DNA of 63,711 nt, the filler included, from Sluysia triapertura (Eukaryota), in NCBI GenBank assembly GCA_046118255.1. It is 5 parts of 5 records of this genome, joined end to end, with 100 filler letters (N's around TTAATTAATTAA, not from the genome) between each part and the next. Parts side by side here need not be neighbours in the genome. Positions count along the whole stretch, not along the records: positions 37,593 to 50,050 come from JBJNIA010107094.1; 4 more parts are not named here. One strand, written 5' to 3'. The translations under genes and the position numbers were made by a program. Positions 4,702 to 61,600 of the stretch are shown piece after piece. Each line of letters opens with the position of its first letter. The stretch's first letter is position 1. The notes beneath the pieces were generated by a model that was not told the DNA's origin, searched no databases, and was given only the letters and a program-made list of their open reading frames with translations.

Positions 4702-5030
4702 TGTTGGAATACAGACCTAAAGCGCCATGTAGTATAATGGACTAGTATAATCTAAAAATTGTCAGTGGGTAGAGCATCGAATTGCGCAGCAATAGATTCC
4801 CTGTTCGATCCCCGGTCAGTCCATCTTATGAAGTCTAACATTTGGTGAGCCCACTTATCGAATACTCTTCTGATGTTGAAATTAATTATTTATAAGATGT
4901 TTGAGGACAAACATAATTGAGATACGTTTGGATCCAAGCCTAAAGTGCCACATAGTATAATTGATTATAGTAATCTAAAAATTGTTAGAAGAGGCTGTTA
5001 TCTCAGTGGGTAGAGGTCCGAAATCTAACA
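4702..5030 (+). mobile_element. tRNA-LTR TRIM, two-LTR copy A
   Basis: LTR1 4702-4840 (TGTTGG...GTCTAACA), PBS-like TGGTGAGCCCA 4843-4853, short internal region, degenerate LTR2 4925-5030. Flanks ATAA/ACAA. Confidence 0.8.
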
Positions 5031-8104: not shown

Positions 8105-8900
8105 CTGGAAATAAGTAACCGAACCGCAAACTTAAATAAAAATTAGATATCAAAAACGACAAATTTAATACGTATATTTAGTATTTACAAATGTTCAAAA
8201 TGTCCACTTTGAACTTCAATAAAAGCACCACATCTTTTGACAACACTTCAACAAATTTTCTGACAACTTTCCTCTGAAATTTGGTTCCATTCGTGCTTTG
8301 TTTTAGTTGATCAATTGTCCTAGGCGTTTTAGTATAAACTGCGTTTTTTAAAATTCCCCACAGAAAAAATCCTGGGATCTTGCAGGCCATTCGATTGGTC
8401 TTCGGCGTCCAATATAACGTCCAGGAAATGTTTCATCAAGCCATTGTCGAACATCTTTGGTTTAATGCGCATCTTGTGAAAATGAAGATAACCTTTAGTG
8501 TTCAGTATATCGAGGAAACGTTCACCATTAACAGTGCTTTCAAAAAAGACAGGGCCAACTAGGCCATTGCTGCCGATTTCAAGCCAGACTATGACTTCTG
8601 TTTCAATAATACGATAGGGATTCTCACTGTCCCAATGAACAATAATGAGTCTGTAATGTGCCAATTTGGTCATTCGCTGCATTTTTAAGAATGAGAGTTC
8701 AGAAGAAAAACCAAACAATGACGTCAGAACAAAATCAATAAGATCACGCAACAAAACTCATTCCAAAGACTACCATTCGCAGAATGAAATGAATAGTAGC
8801 GAAGATAACATAAAATGACATAAAAGAAGAGATTACATTTGTCGTTTTTGAAACCTAATTTTTATTTGAGATTGCGGTTCGGTTACTTTTGGGACACCTT
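8105..8900 (-). mobile_element. Internally deleted Tc1/mariner (maT/DD37D-like) element, copy 1
   Basis: Inverted ends AAGTAACCGAACCGCAAACTTAAATAAAA / ...GCGGTTCGGTTACTTTTGGGACACC. Peptides HWDSENP, VWLEIGSNGLVGPVFFESTVNGERFLDIL, FFLWGILKNAVY. Confidence 0.9.
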
Positions 8901-13251: not shown

Positions 13252-13351
13252 NNNNNNNNNNNNNNNNNNNNNNNNNNNNNNNNNNNNNNNNNNNNTTAAT
13301 TAATTAANNNNNNNNNNNNNNNNNNNNNNNNNNNNNNNNNNNNNNNNNNNN
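13252..13351. other. Artificial scaffold linker
   Basis: N44-TTAATTAATTAA-N44. Confidence 0.97.
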
Positions 13352-15383: not shown

Positions 15384-15698
15384 TGTTGGATTAAAAACGC
15401 CTGAAGTGCCATTTGGTAAATTGACTATAATAATCTAAACTTGTTAGATAGGGCTGATAGCTCAGTGGTAGAAAATTGAACTGCGCAGCGATAAGTCCCG
15501 GGTTTGATCCCCGGTCAGTCCATTTTACGAAGTCTAACATTTGGTGAGCCCATATATCGAATACCCTTCTGATGTTGAAATTAATGATTTATAAGATGTT
15601 TGAGGTCAAACATAATTGAATTGGGAGAAATATGTTGGGTAAAAATGATTATAATAATCTAAGCTGATCCCCGGCCAGTCCTTTAATGAAGTCTAACA
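15384..15698 (+). mobile_element. tRNA-LTR TRIM, two-LTR copy B
   Basis: LTR1 15384-15539, PBS-like TGGTGAGCCCA 15542-15552, 93-bp internal region, PPT GGGAGAAA 15623-15630, deleted LTR2 15633-15698, ATTT on both flanks. Confidence 0.85.
15451..15522 (+). tRNA. tRNA-Ala-like pseudogene inside the TRIM LTR
   Basis: GGGCTGA/TCAGTCC acceptor stem with G3:U70, A box TAGCTCAGTGG, mutated B box GGTTTGATCCC, TTTT after the 3' end. Confidence 0.65.
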
Positions 15699-16211
15699 AT
15701 TTTATTATTCTAATTTATTATTTTAACATTGTTTTAACATTCCTATTATTATTATCATTATTATTTCATCTGTTTTTAAGGGATTTTAAAATCATTTGGT
15801 GGGAGACTCCCTTTGCAATATTTTTTATTTTAAAATTAGTTTTGTGAGAGACACCCCACACAATTTACTTTTCAAATATTAATTTTCTTAGTATATTACT
15901 GTAAAATTCTAGGAAGAATCTCTGCCCAAATTTTTGTTATAATATTTAATTGTAATTATGTTTGGTTAAGCTGTCTAGAAATATTTGGGCAGTATCATTA
16001 TTCTTCACTTTCCAGATATTGATATTTTTAGTGTCTGTTGCATCACTCCTGGCTTCTTTAGTTATATTGTAGTGTCTTTAATATTATTATAAACATTAGC
16101 CAGTTTGAATATTGTTTAGTAAAGATTTATAACATTAATAATTTACATTTTGATTTTTGTTTCATAGTAAATTACTGTTATTATTTGTAATAATTATAAT
16201 AGTAATAATAA

Positions 16212-16338
16212 TGTTAGACTTCATAAAATGGACTGATCGGGGATCGAACCCAGGACCTCTCGCTATCAGCCCCGTCTAACAATTTTAGATTATTATAGTC
16301 CATTATACCAAATGACACTTTAGGCCTGTATCCCAACA
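16212..16338 (-). mobile_element. Solo LTR of the tRNA-LTR TRIM (internal deletion)
   Basis: Reverse strand reads TGTTGGGATACAGGCCTAAAG...TGTTAGACGGGGCTGATAGCGAGAGGTCCTGGGTTCGATCCCC...GTCTAACA. ATAA on both flanks. Confidence 0.85.
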
Positions 16339-21040: not shown

Positions 21041-21592
21041 TTTTTTAAATAGAATAGGATAATTATTTGAAACAAAAAATGTTAAAGAAGAAATTTTAAT
21101 GAAAATTAATTTTAAATTTAGTAAAGTTGAAAATAATTTGATTTTAAATTTTAAAAATGATTATAACGTAAAAACTATATAATAATCCCTAGCAGCTCCA
21201 AAAAGTGTAATTGTACAAACAATAGTTTCACAAATTCAATTTATTGATATCAAATTGATCGTAGAGCGCGCAACACTCGACTTTTCCCGATCAATAATGT
21301 CGTACAATAAATAACCGGAAAACAAAATTTAGGTATCGTTAAACAATGAAAAATATTAAATGGAATTTTTATTCAAACTGTACATTTATATCATCATTTT
21401 TTGCATTGTTAATCATTCGTCATTGATTTATTGTGGATTGCAGTTTATCAATGGTGGCGCGCAACATAAACTGTCGCCTTGACAACTCACGTACTTTCTA
21501 CATACGATTAAGTATATTTTAAATTGCTTATTATATTTAATAATTTTTTGTTTTAATATTACTATTTGCGGTTAATTAAAAGTCGAATTGAA

Positions 21593-22358
21593 TAGGGTGT
21601 CCCAAAAGTAACCGAACCGCAAACTTAAATAAAACTTAGATACCATTTCCTTCTGCGAATAATAGTCTTTGAAATGATTTTTGATCTTGTTCTGCCCTCA
21701 TTGCTTGATTTTCGCTCCGCGTGTGCTTCTGGGCCCTCATTCTTAAAAATTAAGCGAAGGACTTTCGCTTTAACGAACGCATCTTCGTTATTAAGAATTA
21801 AGAATTCCTTGACTAGTTACAAGCACGTTGAAGAAAGATGGGAAGCAAACTTCAAATCAGCTGTACCGAGTAAGTCGACAATGTTCAATCTTGTATCCAA
21901 ATTTGAAGTAACTGGAAGTATGTCAAATGCTCCTAAAGGTCGTCCGAAAACAGTTCGTTCACCTGAAAACAGGGATATAGTGGCAGTTGCATTTGTTCAC
22001 TTATTCACTACACCAAAGATGATCGACAATAGCTTGATGAAACGTTGGACTATGAGATACCCGGATCTGACACAGCCTGCTTTTTTTCTAAAGGAAGTTC
22101 TAAAGAACGCAGTTTATGCTAAAAAGCCTAAGACAATTGATCAACTAAAACAAAGTATTCAGCACGAATGGAACCAAATTTCAGAGGATACTTGCCAGAA
22201 AGTATGTTGCAGTGTCGTCAAAAGATCTCATGCCTGTATTGAAGTTCAAGGTGGACATTTTGAATATTTGTAAATACTAAATATACCTATTAAATTTGTC
22301 GTTTTTGATATCTAATTTTTATTTAAGTTTGGGGTTCGGTTACTTTTGGGACAGCCTA
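21593..22358 (+). mobile_element. Internally deleted maT/DD37D-like element, copy 2
   Basis: TIRs of about 50 bp (TAGGGTGTCCCAAAAGTAACCGAACC... / ...GGTTCGGTTACTTTTGGGACAGCCTA). ORF 21674-22273 fuses the HTH region (KFEVTGS, GRPKTVRSPEN) to the C-terminus (PDLT, GGHFEYL); the catalytic core is missing. Confidence 0.93.
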
Positions 22359-22859
22359 TATATTAAAAATTAAAATCGATGTATCATTCAAATTGTAACG
22401 CAGATTCTAAATCTAATGCGGCACAAAATGCAAAAAAGTTATGTTGAAAAGACACTTGTAATAATAAATTTATAATTTATAGCAAATAATAATAATATTA
22501 AATAATAATGATAATAATAATGGTAATAAAACTGTTTAAATATTGTTGTGCATAACCACCAACTGCATTTTATACAATAGTTTAAACAACAACAACAACT
22601 TATGTGCTGTCCCTAACATCTACATTATAATAAAATAACAGCGACATTGAAGTTAATTATTTTAGCGCCAGATCTGACAGTTATTAATATTTTTGCAGTG
22701 TGCTGAAATTAGATTAGATCTCAATTGTCATAACAATTTGGAACAGCAAAATAATGAAACAGAACACAAATTTACACTAAACTAATTATAAAATTGATAC
22801 TATTTATTGATTTGGATACCTGTTAAATATTTTGCATAAAAACTTATTGAAAAATATAA

Positions 22860-37592: not shown

Positions 37593-38536
37593 GATTATAT
37601 AAATGATTACGGTTATCCATCAATGAATGGAAACCATGAGGAAGCATCAATGACTTCCGCAGTTATAATAGCGTATATTAAGCCTTCCGACGATTTAAGA
37701 AAATTGGACGAATTAATAAATGATGATAATGATGTTGCTTAGATAGAACCCTATGTTCATTACTAAGATAATTAATGGAAGACAATAAAGTTATAGATAA
37801 CCATGATGAAAGTAGAATTATAGATATTACCAATGATAATGATGATTACACTGAAGATAAACCTGACTATATAATAGATTTAAATAAAAATCCACATACT
37901 GAAACTGAAGATAAAGAAACAAATACTTTTAAAAGAAGGCCAGGTAGACCTAGAAAGAATAATGGTGACGAAACAATAAGACCAACCCCAATGCATAGAA
38001 AACCAAAATTACTTATAAGAACATAGAAGAAACCTTAAGTACGAAAACTATAATTTATGCTCTACTATCTAATAAATTTTCTAACTTTGATAAGTATAAG
38101 ACACTTTTACCTAAATTAAAGGAATACAAAATTGCATTAACTAAGATAATTAATGTTATGGAAGAAAAATATATGAATACAGACATAAGTGACTTTATAG
38201 ACAACGATCAATATAAAAACATAATAAATAAACAGATTAACGCTGGAATTAATAGGGACAGACTTAAAATAATAATGACTTACATAATATTTCAATGCAA
38301 TAAGGCTACACTCTTAATTAAAGAAAAAATAGATAAGATTATAAATTTTACTGATAAGAAATTAGGTACTCTGATTGAACAATTAGGAGGATGAAAAAAT
38401 ATTATAAAAGACAAAGATAAAGAAAAGGAAGAAAAGAATATTTTAAATGAACCACTTAACATGATATCCCGACTAATTAATAATAATAATAATAAAGGAA
38501 ATACAAATGGATCATTCCCACGATTCAATAAATAAT

Positions 38537-40520
38537 ATGTTACTTATAATTGTTTTACTGGCATTATTTGGAATTCATAAGACTAATGCTATAAAAGCTT
38601 TTGATTGTAGCCAACCCCAAATTGAAAGAAAGTTCTCTTTATTAGATACCGAAGACTGTCCTAAATCAAGACCAAATAGAGTCAAAATAAAAGACATGAA
38701 AGTATTAAATGTTTATCAAGAAAGAAATCTGGTTACGACACTAGTTAGAGAATGTTTAGTCAAAAGATCTGTGGTTATTTGGTATTGTGGACATCACAGT
38801 CATTCTTCAATTATTGATATATCGAATATATTAAAACCTTTTAAAATATCACCGAATAATTGTCGTGATGTATTCGAAACTGGATACATAAGTCTAAACA
38901 AAGGAGATAAATTAAGAATTAAAAATAATGAGAAAATAATTTATAATATTAGAACAGCTGATAATGTACTAATAGATGGTACGTGCGAAAGAGGATCAAT
39001 AGAATACAAAGGGAAAATTTATACAATTTAGTAGCTCAAGAAACCTATGTAGTAAGTCTAAAATCTTATAACGAAAGTTTTAATTTAGAAAAAGGTACTA
39101 TGATGTCTAGATCTTTTTGTAGAAGTAATCAAACAAGTTGTGACACTGGTGAATCTATACACATATGTGAATTGGAAAATTTTCAATGTCCATTAATATT
39201 CTTAAAACAAATTAAATTTAATTTAATAGAAGGATTTATGTATCAAAATGAAGATGAATTAGCTATAGAAGAAATAAACAAAAAACAAATTTATAAAGAT
39301 AATTTAGACATACGAGAAAGAAAAAGACTTCATGAAATCGAAACTCCAACAATTCTAATGGCGAATGAAGAAGAAGATGGATTAATATTTGTAGCAAAGA
39401 AATTAGTAATTAGATGCGGACTAGAAATCACAGAAACAAACTATTAAGGAATATATTTATCAGAAAAGACAACATTACAAGCTAAGAAAGGAATAGATAC
39501 AAAGAATTTACAGTTGAATACATATTTTAATAACAAAATTGACTTTTATTACCATTTAGGACTTATGTCACTAGAAAAAGTTTATCAAGCTATGATAGCT
39601 AGAGATTGTCAATTAAACAAAGAAATATTAAGAACGAAGTTAGCAGTAGCAATAACTAACCCAGACTTAGTAGCACCATTACTTCCGTTAGAAGAAGGAG
39701 TATTTGGTAGACTGATGAGTGAAGTTTTATATACATACAAATGTAATAAAGGTGGAAGTACTAATGAATTACCAGTAATATGTAAAAATCAAAACACTTA
39801 TTTAGAACCAGTTACTAGAATTATTGTGCCAACTAATAAACTAAAACCAAAACACTGCACTGATCTAATGTAATGGCTCCAGAATATAAAATCGATGATA
39901 ATCTTTGGATATCTTTACCACACAGAAGTCAAGTTAAAACACCAGAAATTATAGGGTTAACAGAATTAAAAACAAAATTAAAATTTTCAACTACAAAGAA
40001 CATTCCAAGATCAGGAATCTGTTCTAATGAAGATATTCAGGCAGCTTGGCACGAAATCTTATTTCCAATTAAAAGATCTAAAGTACCTACTGATATAGTT
40101 GATAAAGCAATAGTAGAAAAAGATGGCAAAATAAATTTTGAATTACTATTAGGACATGATCACTTGAAGAAAGCAGCACACAATACTTTAAAACAAATTT
40201 GGGGAAATTTTTTAGTTATAGGTCAAGCTTTTTCAGGTTTAATAGGAATATATGTATTAATTAAAGTTATTGCTCTTGTAATCTCTCAAATATTTTCAGT
40301 TGTAGGTATTTACAAAATATCAGGCTTTACGTGGAAATTAATAATTGGATGCTTTCCATTTTTAGCTAAGTTCTTATTACATCATCATGCTCATGCTCTA
40401 TTAAATGCTTTAAAGAAAGAGAAAGAACAAAGTGAAGAAATTGCATTACAAACAATAGATACTGAACCAGTTAAAAAAGAAAAGCAAAGTCTATATCAAC
40501 CACCTCCAAGCAATCTAATT
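38537..40520 (+). pseudogene. env: Chuvirus (Jingchuvirales)-like viral glycoprotein
   Basis: Signal peptide MLLIIVLLALFGIHKTNA; AFDC...SLLDTEDC; C...WYCGHHSHSSII; CQLNKEILRTKLAVAITNPD...EVLYTYKC; NELPV...LEPVTRII; C-terminal hydrophobic segments. Split by stops and frameshifts. Confidence 0.82.
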
Positions 40521-40579
40521 TGTATTGTGCTAATAATAATAATTATTATTGTGCTAATAATAAATATAACAGTGCACGA

Positions 40580-40890
40580 AGTCCCATGGTAGATATGAGA
40601 GTTAATGGTAGAATGCTATCTTCATTAGTTTATACAGGAGCAGTGGCCTCATTAATAAGCGAATCATTATTAACCACTAAAGAATTAAGCAATTTAGTTA
40701 AACAACATTCATATTTAACAGGAATAACTGGAGATGAAATTGAAATTCTAGGAGTGCTAAAATATTATGTGAAATTGGACAAAATAAAATTGAAATAAAA
40801 TGCAGGGTCCGGAAGATATGATATTAGGCATGGATGTACTATCACAATTAAAAGGAGTTTCATTAGATTTTAGCAAAGCAAAATTAATGG
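40580..40890 (+). pseudogene. Retropepsin protease 1
   Basis: PMVDMRVNGRMLSSLVYTGAVASLIS (DTG changed to YTG at 40631), LTGITG, DMILGMDVL. Confidence 0.85.
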
Positions 40891-41249
40891 ACACCTATAC
40901 TGATAGACCAATAGATGACGATAATGTTATAATAGAAGAACCACGTTGGTTACTCAAAAGAACAGAATGCATAACACCAGGAAAAAAATAGTGTAAGAAA
41001 TGGCCAAATAATGTCTATAGCCTCGAAAAATAATCAAGAAAAATTAAACATAGGCATTGCTAATTCAATTTGTAAAATTAATGATGGAAGTATACCAATA
41101 AGAATAATAAATTATACAGATGAAAATAAATGGTTATATGCAGGTACAAAACTAGGATAAATAGTTAGCTATAAATTGCAAACACAAATAAATATAGTAT
41201 AAATATATGATAAACCAAGAAATAAGAACATAAAACTACAAAGAAATAT

Positions 41250-43745
41250 CGAAGATGAAGAAATAAAGAATAAGAATTTAACTAAACAACAAAATGAGAT
41301 ATTATACAAAGTCATATACAGATATCCTTGGCAATAGCTAGAAAAAAATATGATATTGGAGATTCCATCATAATAAAACACGAAATTCCGTTAATATAAG
41401 ATAAATTAATTAGAAAGAAACCTTACAGAATTCCATTATGTAATCAACAAGAAATGAAAGATCATATAGATACAATGAAAAAGGTTGGAATAATTAGACC
41501 AAGTTTTTCTCCATTCTCATCATCAGTACTACTAGTTAAGAAAAAAGATGGGACTATGAGATTCTGAATGGATTTTAGAGAACTAAATAAGATAACAAGA
41601 ATAGATGTGTTTCCTCTACCAAGAATAGATGAGATGTTAGATAAATTAGGCAACGCTAAATATTTTACTGCACTAGATCTTCAAAGTGGCAAATAGAGAT
41701 CGCTGAAAAGAATAAACATAAAACAGCATTTTCATGTGGAGATGAGCTATATGAATGTGAAAAGATGCCATTCAGATTAACAGGTGCACCGGCGACATTC
41801 CAAAGATGTGTGAATTTCGTATTGTTTGGTTGTAAGAATGTTATGGTTTATATTGATGATATAATAATATTTTCAAAGGATTTTGACACTCATGTAGTAG
41901 ACAGATAATACACTCAAAAGACTCGAAGTGGCAAGATTAAAGATTAAGCCGACTAAATGTTTATGGGCAGAAGAACAAGTCGAATTTTTAATGTCATATA
42001 GTGTCACATAAAGGTATAAAACCAAATCCAAAAAAAAGTCACCAGATAATGTAAAGAAAGTTCAAAGTTTTCTAGGATTAGCAAATTATTGTAGAAGATT
42101 TGTAAAAGATTTTGCGAAAATAGGTAGACCTCTAAGAATGTTAACATTTAGATGGAATAAAGAACAAACAAAAGCATTTATTAACAACCGCACCAATACT
42201 AATGTTCCCAGATATGAGCAAACCATTTATATTAAGAACAGATGCTAGCTACTTTGCAATAGGAGCAATTCTGGGACAGAGAAATAAAGAAAACTTAGAA
42301 GGTGTTATAGCTTGCGCGAGTAGGAGGTTAAATAAAGCTGAATGCCTAGAAATTGTATACGCATGTAAACTATTTAGACACTATCTATTAGGACAAAAAG
42401 TACTCATATACACCGACCATAAACCATTGACATATTTATTAAACCACAGAGATGAAGTGAGTCGATTAAATCGATGGTTTACAAAACTAGCAGAATTTGC
42501 CGAGTGTATGTCCAGATTAACAAATACCGATGAACAAGGGAACGTAAATTTTATACAAATAATGTCAATTTGTGGAAAGGCTGTAGAGCCAAAAGAAATA
42601 ATAAAACATCAAAAAGGAGACGAAGAAATGTAATATGCCTTCGAAGCAATAGCAAAAGGATTATTAAACGAAGATCAAGCTAAAAAGATGAATGGAAAAC
42701 AATTGTACCAAAAACTCTAATAACACCATTATTAATTCAATATCATGATGGACAATATGTGGGCATTTTTCAACGAGAAAGACATCATCAAGAATTAAAA
42801 ATAAATACTATTGGGATAGCATGGAAGACGATATTAAGAAGTGGTGCAAGAACTGTGCTATCTGCTGCAGAAGAAAGAATACTGGGATAAAAACAAAAGT
42901 ACCACTAAGACCAATACCCATACCACTCTCTTCAATGAAATTCACTGCAATGGATATAATGGGACGGTTGCCAGAAACAATAAATGGAAACAAATGCATA
43001 ACAGTATTCGCAGATTATTTAACAAAACGGCCAGAAGTTTACCCGATACCAAAGCAGAAAGCTGAAACAGTGGCACAAATATTAGTAGAAAAAATAATAT
43101 ACATATATGGAACTCCGAGAAAATTGTTGACTGATCAAGGAACCAATTTTACAAGTGATGTGACAAAGTCTGTTGCAAAATATTTAATATTTTTAAAAAT
43201 ATTCAATCGAACATTAATAAATATGCTACAATTGTATGTAAACGAGAAACAGAAAGATTGGGACTTATATATATCACCATGTTTGTTAGTATATAGAAAC
43301 TCAGTGCATCCTGCTACCCACTTCACACCATTTTATCTTATGTACGGTAGACATTCAAACATGCCACTAGATTTAGATTGAGTACCACCTTTATCTCAAT
43401 ATTCAGAAACTCCTGAACACGTTACTATTATGAGAGAAAATTTACAGGATGCATGGAAACGCGCTGGATTGCAAATACATTATACACAGGAAACATAAAG
43501 ATAACTATGACAAAAAGGCAAACGATCATAATTTCAAAATAGGAGATAAAGTATTGGTAGATTATCCAATAGCAAAACCAAGATATTCTCTGAAATTACA
43601 CAAACCGTTTAAAGGACCTTATGAAGTAATGAAAACAACTTCTACTAATTTATATATAAAGAATCCTAAAGATATGAATGCTGAAACTTTCGTTTTGTAT
43701 GTATATCGATGTAAACTAGCACCAAATGATGAGTATAACTTGTGA
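41250..43745 (+). pseudogene. pol: RT, RNase H and integrase (Ty3/Gypsy pol)
   Basis: LVKKKDGTMRF, FPLPRIDEML, YIDDIIIFS (41849), LRTDASYFAIGA, YTDHKPL, CxxC, AMDIMG, LTDQGTNF, KGPYEV. The segment carrying the catalytic E appears deleted. Confidence 0.95.
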
Positions 43746-43869
43746 GATAGAAACGTTACAAAAAGTGTATTAAAAGTTATGCCAAGAATTAAGGATAGAG
43801 ACAAACCATCTAAATCATTAGGTATACCATTCAAACCAACAAACACAGATGCAAAACCAATTAATACAA

Positions 43870-44200
43870 TAAATATGACAACTTCTTTTAATATACAAAA
43901 TCATTTAGTTCAAAGTATTAAGTTCAATCAAAAATGGGTACGAGCAGTCATAGATACAGGCTTGAATAACACTATTATCAATTATAATGTACTAAATGCT
44001 TCGGAAATTAATATGTTACAACAAGCTGGCATACTATTATTTGCAGTGGACGGCTCACATATTTTATTTAATGGAATGTTACAGTATCAATTAACTCTCT
44101 TAGATGTGTATTTATTCATAACAATACTAGCTTGGGAATGATGCCCATATGATATTATATAAGGAATGGATGTATTAAGCAAATTGGAAAATGTAGTAAT
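43870..44200 (+). pseudogene. Second retropepsin protease downstream of integrase
   Basis: IKFNQKWVRAVIDTGLNNTIIN (DTG at 43953), LFAVDGS, and DII..GMDVLSKL after a frameshift. Confidence 0.8.
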
Positions 44201-45033
44201 ACATGGAAGATTAGGATATCATGTAGTGTTACCACAGTTAGTTTTACCTCCAATGCCAAGAGAAGTGCAACCATTACAACCGCAAAACTACCAAATTGCT
44301 CCACTAAATCCAATAATACCACCATCACCAACTCCAAATTGGGAAAATTTTGATTGGTGGGATACCAAGGTTTCTTCAACCTCGGATATAGGAACAGATA
44401 ATAAAGATAATGATAATAATACTACCGATAACAATACTAGTTATATCATTAGCGGTAGTAGTATAATGTTTATAAGAGGAATTCCAAATAACATATTTCT
44501 TTATATAATAACTTTCATATTATTTCTATTTCAATTGACAACCATGATAACACATTATCCAATAAATTTAACAAGTTATACCAATACTAAACAAGACATT
44601 TTCCTATCGAATACTTTCAATAGATTTTGGACAGCTGAAATTGATAATAGAAACGAATTTCTGATTGTAATTTTGATATATTGCATATATTTTGAACCAT
44701 TAATAATAAAGAAACATTCGATGATAGATAATATTCTTAAATGCGAACATTTAATTCAATATACCACAATTATAGCATATACACCTTACAATAAGACAGT
44801 AACAATCGACTTCGTAGACATTTTTAAGAAAAGATATAAATAATACAATAAGTACACCATTACCTACTACAACAAACAAAATAACGAATATTACTACCGA
44901 CCTAAGTAAGAAAATAAGTAGGACAAATAGGCTGGAAATACAAAATGTCTTTACTATAATCTATATGATATTTACTATTTACTACATAATCACTTGTAAT
45001 AGAGTTATAAGAGTCAATAATAGATTACCAAGT

Positions 45034-45675
45034 ATGATGTTACTTACTTTATTAACATTAATTTCAATTACGAATGCGTCACAAAGAGTTTACTAATCGA
45101 AATACTTGGATTTTTATAATTTCGATACCGAAGTTCAAATTAAGGTAACTAGGAATATTAAAGCACACTACATAGGTATTAATCCGTCAAGACTTAATTT
45201 TAGCATATGAGATTTACACAAACATATTCTACCCAACACAGAGTATCCAGTAACAATATGTAAAGATTATTTACTATCTGAAGACAGAAATATAATAATA
45301 TTTATTCAACGTCAGGCTAAAATTGTTAAACAACTTAATTTTGCTATTCAAGGAATTAAAGAACCAACTACAATTACAGATACATTAAAAAAGGATCCAT
45401 CAATAGCTATTTTAGTAATCGCTGCTACATTATTTATTATTGCAATGATAATAACTTTACTAATGATTATGATGTTCATTATGAATAAATGCAAATATAC
45501 TAATTCTGATTCAAATAATGATGATGATAACTATTATTCTATTCCAAAAAATAATAGATTTTATGTCCCTCCTCCAGGACCACCATTACCGTCAATAATG
45601 CTATCACCAATATACGAATACAATACAGACTTAAGATTAAACATTATAGTGAATTACAAATATCATCGGCGTTAA
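45034..45675 (+). pseudogene. Type I membrane protein (accessory)
   Basis: One frame with two stops: signal peptide MMLLTLLTLISITNA, ~110-aa ectodomain, TM IAILVIAATLFIIAMIITLLMIMMFIM, tail with YYSIP, PPPGPPLP and IYEY. Confidence 0.6.
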
Positions 45676-46772
45676 TATGTATTTGTCTAATAACAACTAT
45701 AGATTCATCTGATATAACCATAAATAAGTTAAGTGAGAAATTGTTTTAAAATAATATACAAATAACTCTTCAAGCCAAGACTGACATAATAGTAGTTGTA
45801 GCATGCAAACAGATGAGAAGTTAGTTAGTTTATCTATTAGATGTTGCTTAAATAAGTTATGTACTACTTCCACAAAAAAATGGATAGTAACCTGTGAAGA
45901 TTTATTTTAATCCCAATTATATCAAGTAAAAATTACAATTGAATTAATAAATCGGGTAATACATGCACAATATTATTGGTTAACACAAAGCCTTATGTAT
46001 TCTAGGATAAATTTAGTAAATAATGGATGAACTGTTCCATAACAGCGTTAACCAATGAAATCGACTTAATTAAGGTAACTAATCCATTATCAAATAACTC
46101 AATTATAATAAGATATGGAACTGATAAAGAAACTGTTTTAGAACTAATTCTACCGAAACGCACGACTATGCTGAATTTCTATCCCCAGTCAACCTTTTCA
46201 ATTATATACTCTTGGATACTTAATGCTAATGAATCAATAAAAGCAAACGACTGGTCAATCACGCGACAATATAATTTTGTTATACCCATTATTAAGGAGA
46301 CTACCAATACTAAACTAAGAATATTGTAAGAAAGTCAATAATAGCTAAGAAAACAATTAAAATACCAAATAAATTTACTAAAATCAGCTTAATTAACCTT
46401 AAAATCTCCAAACACAATAATGACATTAAAGAGAAATTTAAATTCAACATTCATCTTTGCATCATTACATTCACACTTTATGCTTTGCTTACAGTCAATC
46501 TTACAACTGAAGCCAGAAAAATATATTTAGGATCACTTCATAAAATAACACCCTTAATTAAAGTGTAGAGTTGAACAATACATAAAAGTTACGAGTGACC
46601 GATGTTGACGGTTGTTTCCTGTCCAACCGGTCACCTAACTTTAAAAATTTTCGTAGTTTTTAGCAATTTACATAATTAGGATTATAACTATAGTATTTCA
46701 ACCAACAATTTAATTAATTTTAAAATATTATTATCTTATTATATTTTTATTTTTTCTTATTAAATTTCAGCA

Positions 46773-46952
46773 ATGTATTTTATTCGGTGTTCTATTTGTC
46801 AACGTTCTATACATAAGCATTATACAAAGACACATCCATGTTTACATAAATTTCACTTTAAATGTACAATTAATCTTTTTCATTTCTCATTCACGGAATA
46901 CATGAGTTGTCCATTATGTAGAACTTCTAGAGAGGAAATTCAAGTTTTCTAA
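46773..46952 (+). CDS. RING-H2 finger protein (59 aa, below the ORF-track cutoff; probably frameshift-truncated)
   Basis: C-x2-C-x13-C-x-H-x2-H-x2-C-x14-C-x2-C: CSICQRSIHKHYTKTHPCLHKFHFKCTINLFHFSFTEYMSCPLCR. The ATG lies 3 nt after a TTTCAG acceptor. Confidence 0.85.
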   Translation: MYFIRCSICQRSIHKHYTKTHPCLHKFHFKCTINLFHFSFTEYMSCPLCRTSREEIQVF

Positions 46953-47371
46953 AGGGTAAATTTAGGCATTCTTATATCTTAGAAAAAATTCCATTTAATA
47001 TTTTTAATCAGCGAATCGAAATTCAAGAAGTTGTGATAACCCAACCAGAGTATATTAGATAACAAAATAATAAACATTCAATTAATACACAACATCTTAA
47101 TTATCCTCCTAGGTTGTCAAAATCCCAGAAGCATAATCGGAGTTGCAGACAAATACGACATCCGTATAAAAAGGCGGGTTTATATAAGAAGAACAATATA
47201 GCAAATCCATTTTTAAAGAAAAAACTTAATTAACTCAATTTTCATGAATCTTTTATTTTTCCTAAAATACATAAATAGGTAATAAATCAAATAAATAAAT
47301 TTACATTAAACTAACAATAATTTTAATATACTAATCTTTATATTTCTTATTGTTTCACTTTTCCTTCAGAA

Positions 47372-48600
47372 ATGAGTACAAATCAAACAAAAGCAAGAAT
47401 CATAAATAACATTATCCCCTTCTATAATGGCATTGACCGATTCTGCGGTAATAATGAATTTCTTTCTTCAAATATTATCCCAAATATATTAAAATGTAGA
47501 TTGACGATGCGTTCTTCACGCATTTGTTTTGAATTGAAAATATTCAATCTCCTACCATTGTGTGTTAAAGGGAATTTTCCATTAATAATATACCTGTGAT
47601 AATTGCAGCAGCTAGGTTGACTTTAAAAATAACTATTAAAATAGATGGGATTCCAATATTATCACGAATTCAAGGGTTTTCTTCTTTGTTGATCACCAAT
47701 ATTATACAAATACAGGCAATCGAATTCCTCACCACATTCGCAGTACTTTTAGCGCAGTTAGAAAAACCACTAGATCATAAAAAGCGTCCTTTGTTGTACC
47801 ATAAGGACGAGGTCAACCTATATAATTGGCAAGAAGAAATAACGTATTCTCATAACACAAAGGGGATTTTATTTTCGTATCAGTACAATTTGCCTTCGGG
47901 TTTGATGAATAGGCATCACATACTTAAAATGTGTTTTATGCCCTATCATTAATTATTTCATGGAGAAGTCTTATTAAGACCTAGGATCCGCATAAAAACT
48001 TTTTAACCGTTGATCATGGGATGAAAGAGGATCACTTAAAAGATGCCAAAGATTTGTCCCAAATTAGAGATTTTTGGCTAGCTGCTCTTAATGATAAAAT
48101 TCTGGTATCCACTTTCCCAGAATTAATAATTAAGACACTGCACATCCCATATGGTTGGTTAAGGAGGATCATTAATTTAACTTGCACTAATTTAGTGTCA
48201 CAGACTTCATTAAACCCCATTACGAAGACCCGAAGATTACTAAAATTATTATACCCTTTTCCTCCAAAAGTAACCTGTCACCAACTTGTTATCTCCAAGG
48301 ATCCCTCATTTTTGCCACAGATCAATGATATTAATCTTACTTTACCTGCTATTCCAAGCACTTCTTTTACTGAATCACAAAACATACCTACAATACCTAC
48401 AATGCGGATGAAACTCCACAAAGAAACTACGAAAACATACTTCTCCGTCAGTTGACCTAGATGTCACTGGGAACAATTTCAGAAGGCAGAAAACACCAAT
48501 AAGGAAGATGGTATTAACTATATAAATGAAGAAGACATTGATTGTATTGATTATGATGACAGTATTTTAAACGACATTTTTGATTTTAATATTCCCTTCA
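47372..48600 (+). pseudogene. Accessory ORF with a DEDDh (REX4/ISG20/DnaQ-like) exonuclease-like segment
   Basis: GEVLLRPRIRIKTF/LTVDHGMKEDHLKDAKDLSQIRDFWLAALNDKILV at 47962-48110. Expected acidic catalytic residues are not evident. The ATG follows TACTAAT...TTTTCCTTCAG. Confidence 0.5.
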
Positions 48601-48634
48601 GAAATTAGGGACTAATTTTCCCTAATGGGTAAGA

Positions 48635-49200
48635 TGTGTTGTGTTTATAAGTTATGTTTACAAATCAAATTTACATACAAATTTACGAATTATATATGTG
48701 TACAAATTATATAAATATACATAATTATTGATTTGTCGATTTTTGTAAATTTATTGTTAATTTATATTTAAGTGGAAAATTTACATCTTCGGAATTTTAT
48801 TGGAATTTTAATTGCAGTTTTATAAAAAAAAGGGAAATATTAATATTATCATTTTTATTGATCATTATTAGTGTTAAATTATTAATTTTATTATAGTTAA
48901 AATTTTTAAAATTATTTTAAATTTTAAATAATTAGTTTGACCTCAAGGTCATTTTTTAATATAGAAGCAGTGAGATTAGGTTTCATTGACACAATATTTA
49001 GACACAATCTTTATACACAATTAAGAACTTGATTAAAATAATGATTATTAAAAGTTTATTTTACATCCAGAAAAGTAGCATAAATTTATACAACCTCCAT
49101 AGACTTTACGTTTTTACTTTGAAATCCAACGGCTAACTCTAACCGGTAAGCCTAGTGCGTTAGTGGACTCACCGTGAGTTTGCTTTATATATAACAATAA
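48635..49200 (+). repeat. Putative 3' LTR of the large Gypsy element
   Basis: TGT follows the gypsy-type tract TTAGGGACTAATTTTCCCTAATGGGTAAGA. Candidate ACA ends at 49196 or 49212. No 5' LTR in the window to confirm. Confidence 0.55.
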
Positions 49201-50050
49201 TTCTACCACACAATTAGATGAGTATGAATCTCCGCATATTCTAAACTTAATAACAAAGTTCTTTTATAAAATATAATTTATAAATTAGTCTTTTAATAAA
49301 AAATTAATTGATATACATAAATGTTAGTAACCCAATAACAATAACTTAGCAACAAAAATTTAAGACCCAACAAATAACAAACAAATCAAGCAAAAATAAA
49401 GTTTGGTCATATATTAAAAGAAATTTAAGATTCAATCAGTGTTTTCCACAACTACCTTCTTACAACAGAGGAAAATTATAAACTTATTGTAATAATTCTT
49501 GTGCTTATGGTTATTTATGTGGTGTTTAGATGATTGCTAGAAATGCGGGACTTAATTATTTTGCATTTCGACAACACATGCTTATTTCTTAGAATCAGTT
49601 TTATGCCGACCAATTTTAATAATCAAATTTGAACATTAATTATTATCTGGCAATTATCAAATGATATTGAGTTTTATGATAAACTCATGTATTTAGAATA
49701 ATAAAATCAAAATTTAACATTTTAATAATACTAATTGATACAATATATAAATTAATGTATTTCATATTTCTTTTATGTAATTATAATGCAATCCTTATGT
49801 AAAATTAATGTATTTCAGGTTTAAATAATTTAATATTTTAATAGTTATTATTTTAATATTTTAATAATTATTATAATAATTGATAAAGAAAAGGAAAATA
49901 TTTTATTATTGTAATTATTATTAAATTATTAAATTTCATTATTATTGTATTATTGTTGCGTCTTTAAAATCTGTTAGTTATTACAACTCAATATTATTAT
50001 CTTGATCAGCTTAAACCTTAATAATTTCAATAGTCAGTATATCAAGTATA

Positions 50051-52863: not shown

Positions 52864-53900
<1,037 letters not shown>

Positions 53901-58503: not shown

Positions 58504-58666
58504 TGTTGGGGCAAAAAGGCCTAAAAAAAAGTGCCAAGTAGTATAATTGAATATAATGAAAATGAAAAAGTTAGACGGGGCTGATAGCTCAGTGGTAGAG
58601 AAGTCGAACTGCGCAGCGATGGTCCCGGGTTCGATCCCCGGTCAGTCCATTTTACGAAGTCTAACA
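58504..58666 (+). mobile_element. Solo LTR of the tRNA-LTR TRIM
   Basis: TGTTGG...GTCTAACA flanked by the 4-bp duplication GTAT (58500-58503 and 58667-58670). Confidence 0.88.
58578..58649 (+). tRNA. tRNA-Ala-like gene inside the LTR (best-preserved copy)
   Basis: Acceptor GGGCTGA/TCAGTCC with G3:U70 and A73. A box TAGCTCAGTGG, T arm CCGGG-TTCGATC-CCCGG, TTTT terminator at 58650. Anticodon arm irregular. Confidence 0.7.
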
Positions 58667-61600
58667 GTATTATTTTATCGAACCTTTAACATTTTTGTGA
58701 CAGTTAATTTAATTCTGTGTATAAGTACATTTGATTATTAAGTTTTCTTTTAAAATTAAATAATTGAAGTAATATTGTTATCCTGAGTACTAACTAACAT
58801 TTTGATTTAAGTTGTATAATCGAATTTTGTGTTTATTTTAATAAATAGTTTATGATATCACTGTGTTTTTGATAAGTAATAATCATTTTAAAATTTGTAT
58901 ATTTATAAACATTTAACGCAGATAATTTTTGAATAAAATAATATCTAAGTTAACATTTCATCTTTGAATCGTGATTATACGTCATTTATTTCTAAAATTA
59001 TAATAAATTAAAAGAATTCAATTGCAATAAGTGTTTAAAAATTGGAAATACGTAGAGCCAAGAATTAATTTAAATATAAATCTCCAGTTTTATCTTTCTT
59101 TTCTTGAGCTTCGAATCTATGTGCTGACCCTTCGGTGAGTAAGTCCAGTATCATAAAGAACATAAAATAAGAATAAAGAAACTAATCCAAAAGCAAATAT
59201 CTATCTTTAATCACCAAATATTCACAATATATTAAAATTTTCATGCAAAAGATTTAACTACGAATAATAAACCAGACAAACATATGAAGATAAACGTCCT
59301 ACAATTCGAAAATTCTGCTACATATTTAATGACAATTTAAAGTAACCACATCCAAAATATATATATTTAACTGTTAATGAACAACTATTACTTGCCTGGA
59401 AGATATTTTAATCAGAAAACCGCGAAATTATAATTTTTTTGGTTTTATAAGCTCTAAATATAGGAAAATTTAATTTTAGTTTAATTTTAGTTTTTATGGT
59501 AAATGGTCGTTATTAATCTTAAAAAAGGATGGCGCTTAGAGAGCTTATTGAAAGTAATTATGGAAATATTATCTTTTGAAAAGACTACTTTATCAAGGTG
59601 AGGTTTTAATGTTATGGAAAAACTAAATTGAAAGCTTTAATTTTAAACATAACACACCATTTAAAATCCATAATTAGCACAGAAAAACAAATTACATTTA
59701 TAATGTAAGGTTGTAAATTAAAATTTTTGTATAAAATTTATATTTTATTATTTATTTTATATTTTATGCATTTTTTATTTTATGTTTCGTGCATTTATTA
59801 AAAATTATAAAAATTACTATTTAAAAAATTACAATTAACATTATTTTAAAAATTATAAATAAAATTTAATTATTTTAAATTACAAAGAAAACAAAGGATA
59901 TTAGAACCGGCTGTTTTTATTAACAAAATTTTTAATATGGTTCCTTACAGTATATAAAGACGTAAAAAAATAGTGACAAGTTAATCACACAAGTGGTAAC
60001 CATTTTAATTATACAAGTTGATGATATAAAGTGTAACACTGCTGTACGGAGAACAATTCAATTCAAGTTATTATATTAAATTCAATTGATTATATTCGAC
60101 AATTGGTCTGTATTGACGAGATAAACTTTTATATTCGGCAGCACCATTAATTTTATCAAAACAAATTAGTTATCAATTAAGTAGTAAGTTTAATTTTAAT
60201 AGACTGAAAACTCGTAAGAGTTATATACTTAAACTTTTCTATTTTCAATTGGTCCTTAAGATCAATAATAAAATATTGTCAAATAGATAGAGACTTCGAA
60301 CTAGATCGAATTAAAATATTATTGCTATTATCATTATTATTTTATAATTTTGTTTACATTATTAAACTCTGTTTTTTTTACTAATGCATACATTTATCGG
60401 AATTTTTGGTAAGCTATTTTAACATTTTTGATAATTAACTTTTGGTAATGCTTGTTGTTATTTATAATTTAATTAACATTTAAGTAGTTCTTAGAACGTA
60501 TGTATTTAAGGCTGTTTGATCACTTTACTATCTAGGATAAAATTATACAAGACTTGACATAAATATATATTAGTGTTAAAGACTTTAATTTAAACGAATT
60601 TCGTAATACACGTCATAGTAAAAGACATTTTTATGTTATTCTTTAAGCATACTTTCACGTTACTTACAGATACACCATTGGTAAGTGGTGTACTGTGAGC
60701 GGACTCTGAATATTAATTTATTTTGCTGTTAGGTAAGTTTTTAGTTAAAAGAATAAAACAGTCAGTAATAAGAATTCACTACACTGTCTTCATTATTTTC
60801 TATCACAGTTTCTCGAATGTGATGTTTAAGCAGGAATATCCTGTCATTTTTAAGAATAGTTACGAAGTTTGTGCATATCAAGTTATCAATATTTCTGAGT
60901 TTCCTTCTAGAAGGAAAATAACTAACAAAAAATTTAATACCCGAATCGCTAAATTTGTTGTTCATCATTTTATATATTGAACGACTTATAAAATAGCATC
61001 AATTTTGCTTTTTTAATTTAATTCTTTTATTCACATTATTATTAAAAGAAGTTACGAACTCTAAATAGCTAATTTATTCATTTCAACTCAAAAATTAATC
61101 AAAACTTTTTTTAGATCTTTAATTACTTTAGGTAACTATAAATGTTGAAAATAAAACCAAGACAAATATCCGTTGGTTAAGGCAGTAACTAACTTATCTA
61201 TAACTGATTTAATTTTAATCTCGTTTTTATTAATGTCACGAAATCTAAATCACATAAAAGAGAATTTCTATAAAAACTTGAAATACTAGAAGAACATAAA
61301 TGACTTCATAAAATAAATTTATTAACACATTCGTAAAATTTTGAAAACTAAGACTATTAAATTTATAACCTAAATGAATTTTTTGTTCATCAACAGAAAT
61401 TTTATTAATAGGTTCTAAAACTTTGTAATCCATAGATTTATTTTTAAAATCATTATTTAAAATATTGTCTCTATTTATAGTATTTGGATTTGATTCACCC
61501 GATCTATCTGTTATGTACATGCCGACATGGTTGCACTTTGCATAAATAAGTTTGGCAAAGTTTATTCAGATTCTAAAATTAACTTCAAAACGAATTCAAA

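Follow-up and report, generated by a model that had tools for sequence, protein, structure and literature searches.

A RING-H2 accessory gene under purifying selection in an errantivirus-like LTR retrotransposon of the Sluysia triapertura assembly

We describe a RING-H2 gene that is carried, between pol and the 3′ LTR, by a large LTR retrotransposon in the Sluysia triapertura genome assembly (GCA_046118255.1). An earlier note on this DNA had proposed an accessory gene of a retrotransposon. The position of the gene, its copy number, the purifying selection acting on it and its conservation in a second family of elements back this proposal and make it practically certain that the gene is a genuine accessory gene of the element. 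In the reading that we prefer, intact copies would encode a nuclear RING-H2 ubiquitin ligase, which we predict to come from spliced RNA and to mark host proteins for the benefit of the element; taken as a whole, this reading seems to us about evenly poised between right and wrong.

The window, i.e., the whole stretch of DNA analysed here, is 63,711 nucleotides long. It joins contigs at positions 13252, 26637, 37493, and 50051 by N-TTAATTAATTAA-N, and neighbours across these joints may not adjoin in the genome. The element is borne by a single contig (JBJNIA010107094.1, window positions 37593–50050); the contig ends before it reaches the 5′ LTR, the primer-binding site (PBS) and gag.

The window copy of the RING gene (ORF-B) is broken and occupies positions 46773–47233 (+), as delimited by its ORF, Pfam matches and alignment to intact sisters. 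The gene consists of a RING-H2 domain (codons 6–49), a linker, an arginine-rich helix, and a C-terminal NPF motif, and is about 153 aa long in intact sisters. A 59-aa ORF at 46773–46952 (+) holds all eight C3H2C3 ligands reported by the earlier note (C6, C9, C23, H25, H28, C31, C46, and C49). The Pfam zf-RING_2 match of this ORF (E 7.8e-7, 29.7 bits) exceeds the cut-off of 27.3, thus the RING is not a chance match; three of three sister proteins also exceed the cut-off (29.5–30.9 bits). The match of an intact sister (L006, 153 aa) is split between two frames of the window, at 46773–46949 (88%) and 46946–47230 (68%). The coding-like sequence noticed earlier in another frame is therefore the rest of the same gene, and the 59-aa ORF represents the 5′ part of a gene copy that is dead. 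Because of a frame break near 46946–46949 and an in-frame stop at 47060–47062 relative to the intact 153-aa sister, the window copy is a pseudogene, as are the adjoining env and pol. The earlier note had overlooked this, along with the conserved arginine-rich C-terminal helix and the probably spliced two-gene 3′ cassette.

The contig begins with the end of a gag-to-env spacer (37593–38476, +). Sisters supply the missing 5′ end: an LTR, a conserved PBS-like TGG site, and a gag with a CCHC knuckle, followed by the spacer, which is acidic. The region at 37.6–38.4 kb was considered as gag and rejected, as the sisters place gag upstream of it. The spacer contains KRRPGRPRK, which we take to be an AT-hook-like motif (within window 37930–37960; also in L169 and L177). 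Next comes a broken env (38477–40592, +) for a class III fusion glycoprotein of the gB / Monjiviricetes type (PF24664, E 1e-22, 3e-17, and 7e-29 in three pieces). It is followed by a broken pol with the Ty3/Gypsy order PR-RT-RH-IN (40475–43745, +), which is matched by Pfam RVP (weakly), RVT_1, RT_RNaseH, Integrase_H2C2, and rve. ORF-A (43746–46568, +), broken as well, is a C-terminal extension of pol in sisters and comprises a second retropepsin-like domain and then membrane-like units. Downstream of the RING gene lies a second accessory gene, ORF-C (47372–48608, +), also broken, with a beta-helix domain followed by a DEDDh-exonuclease-like domain. A degenerate polypurine-tract-like stretch (48624–48634, +), which is weak and has the same context in L047, precedes the 3′ LTR (48635–49188, +). 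This LTR has an internal deletion near 49021 and has lost its last bases; in L047 it measures 1,196 bp (TGT...ACA).

The core of the element is probably one long polyprotein, because a single open frame covers the spacer together with env in L176, L171, and L177, and integrase reads on into ORF-A in four of the six copies inspected (L021, L031, L140, and L147; internal deletions or shifts mark the remaining two). A candidate status of ORF-A as a separate accessory gene was rejected, since the integrase frame continues into it. The ORF-A extension is about 930 aa long and has a DTG motif in its second retropepsin-like domain (L031:232-1623:+, L029:3721-4668:+); the gag-asp_proteas match in ORF-A of L031 (E 1.2e-5) is below the cut-off. 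ORF-C adjoins the RING gene on the 3′ side in 19 of 20 long stretches, and polyprotein domains are found upstream in six of these 20. Four contigs span gag or the spacer to RING (three chosen as present in both match lists, plus L021). The element LTR was found by genome search, while blastn against the RING loci failed because LTRs diverge; it precedes gag in 4 of 18 stretches and follows ORF-C in L047. In this fragmented assembly we found neither a copy with an LTR at each end nor one with a target-site duplication. The distance from gag to ORF-C is about 12 kb, and the element is about 13–14 kb long. The RING gene is thus within the LTR-bounded element and not outside its true boundary.

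The backbone of the element is of a known kind, namely the GAG-ENV-POL errantiviruses with HSV/gB-type ENV described from Platyhelminthes, Bryozoa, and Nematoda (Chary and Hayashi, PMC13524379), with the same gag-env-pol order, class III env, Gypsy pol, and LTRs. Across copies we found the PR-RT-RH-IN order, the gB-type env between gag and pol, the LTRs, and the TGG site. By eye, the cysteine pattern of the env is that of the Schmidtea C1a rows in the supplement of that paper. Its main text treats these errantiviruses as three ORFs only and contains neither “accessory” nor “ubiquitin”, whereas the element described here adds ORF-A on pol and two accessory genes. The giant planarian Gypsy element Burro (GYPSM1), as presented in PMC6431247, likewise has env in frame between gag and pol within one polyprotein. 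It also carries accessory ORFs and ubiquitination-tied domains (MATH, Ubi/SUMO-like, BIR, and one labelled “AIR1 ... RING Zn-finger”). However, the Burro interior is given there as about 25 kb with the extras inside or upstream of the polyprotein, while our element is about 13–14 kb long and its RING-H2 gene stands free on the 3′ side of pol. In the window, two pieces of the spacer gave no Pfam match to the Burro-type BIR, BCL2, MATH, or ankyrin domains. We assume that the AIR1 label of Burro probably denotes CCHC knuckles.

Extra ORFs are also described in LTR elements of rotifers (PMC5408684) and plants (PMC7264820). The bdelloid Juno and Vesta elements, in the account of PMC5408684, resemble ours in having 3′ accessory ORFs other than env (DEDDy, GDSL, and TM ORF3s), typically spliced and with exonuclease-fold cargo. 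In that account the DEDDy residues are intact and a RING is not mentioned, whereas ORF-C is without such residues and has an extra beta-helix domain. The word “RING” is absent from the main texts of PMC13524379, PMC5408684, and PMC7264820. In the literature searched we found no free RING gene 3′ of pol in animal LTR elements, although Grohme 2018 and Repbase may describe such ORFs.

A genome search with an outside homologue as the query revealed a second family of elements in the same genome. Its RING protein is 36–38% identical to that of family 1 (the family of the window), its IN is 68–73% identical, and the order IN-ORF-A-RING-ORF-C is kept in three contigs (L140/141, L147, and L154). In another contig (L155, G000:C62754) two RING + ORF-C units stand in tandem, each of a different lineage, and L135 (G000:C127434) represents a third RING lineage. 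The outside homologues came from a full HMMER search with the RING protein, although a word-seeded search with the 153-aa protein gave no match. The HMMER search returned 28 matches at E ≤ 0.001, among which five ENA/Logan proteins match the tail too and the rest are generic RINGs. Of the five, four are full length, with the whole RING, and the other is missing the RING's first half; a sixth homologue emerged from a profile search. At 31–36% identity, all six outside homologues retain the arginine run, and the five that were aligned finish in an NPF-like motif; two distant ones lack P47. The loci of these homologues were not found in metagenome and viral scans.

Copy number speaks against a one-off host insertion: the RING query gave at least 150 scored matches in the genome, from 1614 candidates, and the full-length RING protein gave at least 150 from 2746. 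For the analysis of selection we used 70 distinct copies of family 1, picked for their similarity and in part for being intact; 40 of them read through into the basic tail and 30 do not. Pairwise omega of the RING gene is 0.27 for 28 close pairs and 0.13 for 752 distant pairs, and the maximum likelihood estimate is 0.173; omega from read-through copies is biased, as intact and similar copies were picked. A test by variant class, which escapes the intactness bias only partly, was applied to codons 1–50 in the 66 of 70 copies that are in register, with a neutral N/S expectation of 2.99. Variants seen in a single copy include 102 non-synonymous changes, 19 synonymous changes, and 6 stops; this class is decay after insertion. 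N/S is 31/11 for variants in two or three copies and 22/56 = 0.39 for those in at least four. This is the pattern of a gene maintained by replicating lineages, and the RING gene is under purifying selection.

Where pairs are unsaturated, omega is 0.05–0.12 for the RING gene and 0.07–0.3 for RNase H and integrase in the same pairs, which counts against passive cargo. In the linker it is 0.21–0.29, and in distant pairs the arginine helix (0.12) is as conserved as the RING. No region of the RING protein has omega above 1 in the domain-level pairwise test, so there is no arms-race signature at that level. In most of the same pairs the silent divergence of the RING cassette exceeds that of pol (pS about 0.7–0.8 against 0.5), which suggests that the 3′ cassette has been exchanged between sub-lineages independently of gag-pol.

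A role as an E3 ligase, suggested for the gene by the earlier note, is favored by the predicted fold and by the conserved positions for E2 contact and the linchpin. Each RING ligand is kept in 37–40 of the 40 read-through family-1 copies and in 23–24 of the 24 family-2 copies, and the fifth ligand is His in all of them (40/40 and 24/24). We take I8, L35, and P47 to be hydrophobic E2-contact positions of loop 1, the helix, and loop 2, and R50 to be the position of the linchpin Arg; the latter fits the alignment with RNF38 and ARK2C, in which R50 stands opposite the Arg after the last Cys. Conservation is high in family 1 (I8 63/66, L35 64/66, P47 61/66, R50 62/66) and in family 2 (I8 24/24, P47 22/24, R50 24/24); the usual helix Trp is replaced by Leu or Phe. 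The linchpin Arg is a key catalytic aid of RING E3s (PMC12326332), and some RINGs with intact ligands are inactive (PMC6487577). In the predicted model, a RING fold is accompanied by a helix that spans residues 117–134; the mean pLDDT is 67.8 (62–83 in the RING). The rmsd of the model to TRIM and other RING E3s is about 1.5–2.9 Å over some 50 columns, and the Foldseek matches listed were nearly all RING proteins, none reaching E ≤ 0.001. Among ten E2 loci inspected in the genome there was no clear UBE2D-type gene. Because the residues of E2 contact and the Arg at the linchpin position are conserved, an intact gene likely encodes an active E3.

Viral RING proteins offer a parallel. Members of the alphaherpesvirus ICP0 family (PDB 1chc) and baculovirus IE-0, IE2, and PE38 likewise combine a RING with a basic region and a proposed action on host repressors, and the RING protein of the element may work in a similar way. 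However, these viral RINGs are C3HC4 domains in larger proteins of DNA viruses, whereas the RING of the element is C3H2C3. The match to the baculovirus RING family PF05290 is below the cut-off, and profile matches to TRIM2, ARK2C, RNF38, and the equine herpesvirus RING (PDB 1chc) are about equal. Since the likeness is that of a generic RING, no better than to host TRIM2, ARK2C, and RNF38, the sequences give no sign of descent from viral RING ligases.

Splice-like sites flank the gene. An acceptor-like site (pyrimidine tract and AG) at 46745–46770 (+) ends 2 nt before the RING ATG, and a donor-like site in the LTR (49143–49151, +) would act from the 5′ LTR copy. A pyrimidine tract with YAG 2–3 nt before the ATG is present in 49 of 57 family-1 copies with ATG as compared with 73 of 7000 random positions (1%); 7 of the 57 have no acceptor-like site. 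In family 2 and related copies a site 2–17 nt upstream is found in 23 of 24, a span wider than the one tested against the background. ORF-C also starts with an acceptor-like site in 21 of 28 family-1 and 11 of 17 family-2 copies with ATG; in the window its AG is at 47368–47369. Donor-like G/GTRAG or G/GCAAG lies near the 3′ end of 23 of 33 distinct LTR copies, and the other 10 are without it. We consider it likely that the RING gene is made from spliced RNA, as these sites predict. Alternative splicing from the 5′ LTR would be the simplest reading of them, and spliced leader (SL) trans-splicing would be an alternative use of the acceptor-like sites. An acceptor-like site also precedes the gag ATG (L169, L175, and C101545), so the gag mRNA, too, may arise by splicing from this LTR donor, which would leave out the primer-binding site.

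The arginine-rich tail raises the best surviving of the rival readings, an RNA regulator akin to Rev/Rex/Rec (PF00424), whose arginine helix would bind element RNA and set the balance of unspliced and spliced RNA or its export, with the RING as a helper or dimerisation module. Rev, Rex, and Rec are regulatory proteins of complex retroviruses, with which our protein shares an origin from a small 3′ gene, here probably spliced, and a predicted arginine-rich helix. The basic window of our protein has 4–7 Arg and about 8.5–9 K+R per 18 residues in both families, the helix and the RING are equally conserved, and the element seems to need several spliced RNAs besides the genomic RNA. Pfam REV also matches the basic window in two of three intact proteins (E 0.032 and 0.051), but at 14–15 bits, short of the 22-bit cut-off, and these scores may be compositional. 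Moreover, a strict leucine-rich export signal was found in none of 57 intact proteins and none of six outside homologues, loose matches not being conserved, and such a regulator has no need of a RING with conserved E2-contact residues. An ESM Atlas search with the tail (residues 52–153) gave no usable match. Overall, a Rev-like regulator seems unlikely to us, though it deserves more weight than the other rivals.

The ligase might instead be directed at the element itself, ubiquitinating its Gag, Env, integrase, or ORF-A units and so timing assembly, budding, or turnover; it would then play no part against the host. Purifying selection that is uniform, with no patches evolving fast, would fit a stable substrate encoded by the element, and the element does have an envelope. 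Yet so long a basic helix would suggest a place in the nucleus or on RNA, and the exchange suggested by silent divergence would have swapped the RING cassette between lineages apart from gag-pol, so that we regard self-directed activity as improbable.

ORF-C bears on a further rival. It is present in both families at about 35% identity, and an intact frame is found at L034:2855-4081:-. Residues 8–155 of a natural intact frame are modelled, mostly confidently, as a double-stranded beta-helix of the 2OG-oxygenase/cupin kind (the Z score is about 10 against AlkB and the prolyl-hydroxylase oxygenases and 8.7 against vaccinia C16), and the second half is poorly modelled. The Atlas puts ORF-C near DEDDh exonucleases (0.90, 155 shared features; the ten best family matches all agree). 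A profile comparison with a two-sequence DEDDh alignment gave E 0.0006 over 52 columns at a probability of only 29%, and the positions of DEDDh motif I are not acidic in either family. A protein search gave no homologues of ORF-C and a PDB sequence search no meaningful match; the one noteworthy Pfam match, INT1_R3, falls on 6 of 41 ORF-C fragments. As a lead from these models, ORF-C may be a pseudo-enzyme that unites an inactive oxygenase fold and an exonuclease fold. Its Atlas look-alikes include the C-terminal domain of arenavirus NP (0.86, a lead only). Together with the small size and stand-alone nature of the RING protein, this recalls a non-catalytic scaffold like arenavirus Z, active in matrix formation or translation control, whose partner would be a protein of exonuclease fold, as NP is for Z. 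Arenavirus Z is N-myristoylated at Gly2 and has late domains. By contrast, none of the RING copies of this genome that we inspected has Gly2 (only the outside protein P0002 does), PPxY occurs by eye in only a few copies, and the C3H2C3 ligands come with conserved I8, P47, and R50; we think a Z-like scaffold quite improbable. Finally, the view of the gene as a one-off or passively carried fragment of a host gene, suggested by the dead window copy and by the 30 of 70 copies that do not read through, is refuted by shared variants that are mostly silent, by the same position in two families about 38% identical, and by an omega as low as that of RNase H and integrase, and we give it next to no credence.

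The host of the element is likely a flatworm. One COX1 gene in the assembly is T-rich and has AAA at conserved Asn positions (flatworm/echinoderm code); three other COX1 genes are fish-like (the L158–L161 set), so the assembly is mixed. The GC content of the element (25–30%) matches the bulk genome, and its env matches the Schmidtea rows, as noted above. An arthropod host is unsupported, as PF00379 gave 0 candidates, which is not proof of absence. A long contig (C10, L200) holds a bacterial-looking domain, presumably a polymerase exonuclease. Elsewhere the window contains two MITE-like units of about 770 bp with terminal inverted repeats of about 55 bp (8113–8888 and 21592–22359) and repeated tRNA-like units (4768–4920, 15467–15619, 16204–16264, and 58528–58674). 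There is also a decayed kinase-like exon fragment (53652–53807, −), which in our judgment resembles an AMPK/SNF1 kinase exon.

The preferred reading of a host-directed nuclear ligase would work as follows. Transcription would begin in the 5′ LTR, and the RNA would be spliced from the LTR donor onto the acceptor that precedes the RING ATG, or alternatively onto the one before ORF-C. Through its basic helix the RING protein would reach the nucleus or attach to RNA or chromatin. The RING would recruit host E2~ubiquitin, and the ligase would remove or modify a repressor of the element, e.g., a silencing or restriction factor. We put a host-directed role, anti-silencing or activating, at slightly better than an even chance; counter-defence, the function suggested by the earlier note, is plausible. 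In planarians, nuclear PIWI keeps LTR elements repressed (PMC8532177), so a candidate target system exists in flatworms.

A bolder version, which we offer as speculation and think doubtful, would see here an old flatworm lineage of “complex” errantiviruses with HIV-like alternatively spliced 3′ accessory genes, in which an RNA-guided ligase that destroys the silencing complex and a double pseudo-enzyme decoy would jointly act against piRNA silencing. The arginine helix would bind element RNA or chromatin, and the RING would destroy the silencing complex arriving there. As the decoy, ORF-C would join a dead oxygenase fold to a dead exonuclease fold of the DEDD type, features reminiscent of vaccinia C16 and Maelstrom/EXD1.

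Descriptions of animal LTR retrotransposons usually stop at gag-pol(-env). A conserved, probably spliced ligase-like gene would liken these flatworm elements to complex viruses that manipulate their hosts. The RING protein is small and cloneable and gives a handle on the question of whether retrotransposons counter PIWI/piRNA silencing with proteins, in flatworms, where RNAi works and nuclear PIWI is known to restrain LTR elements.
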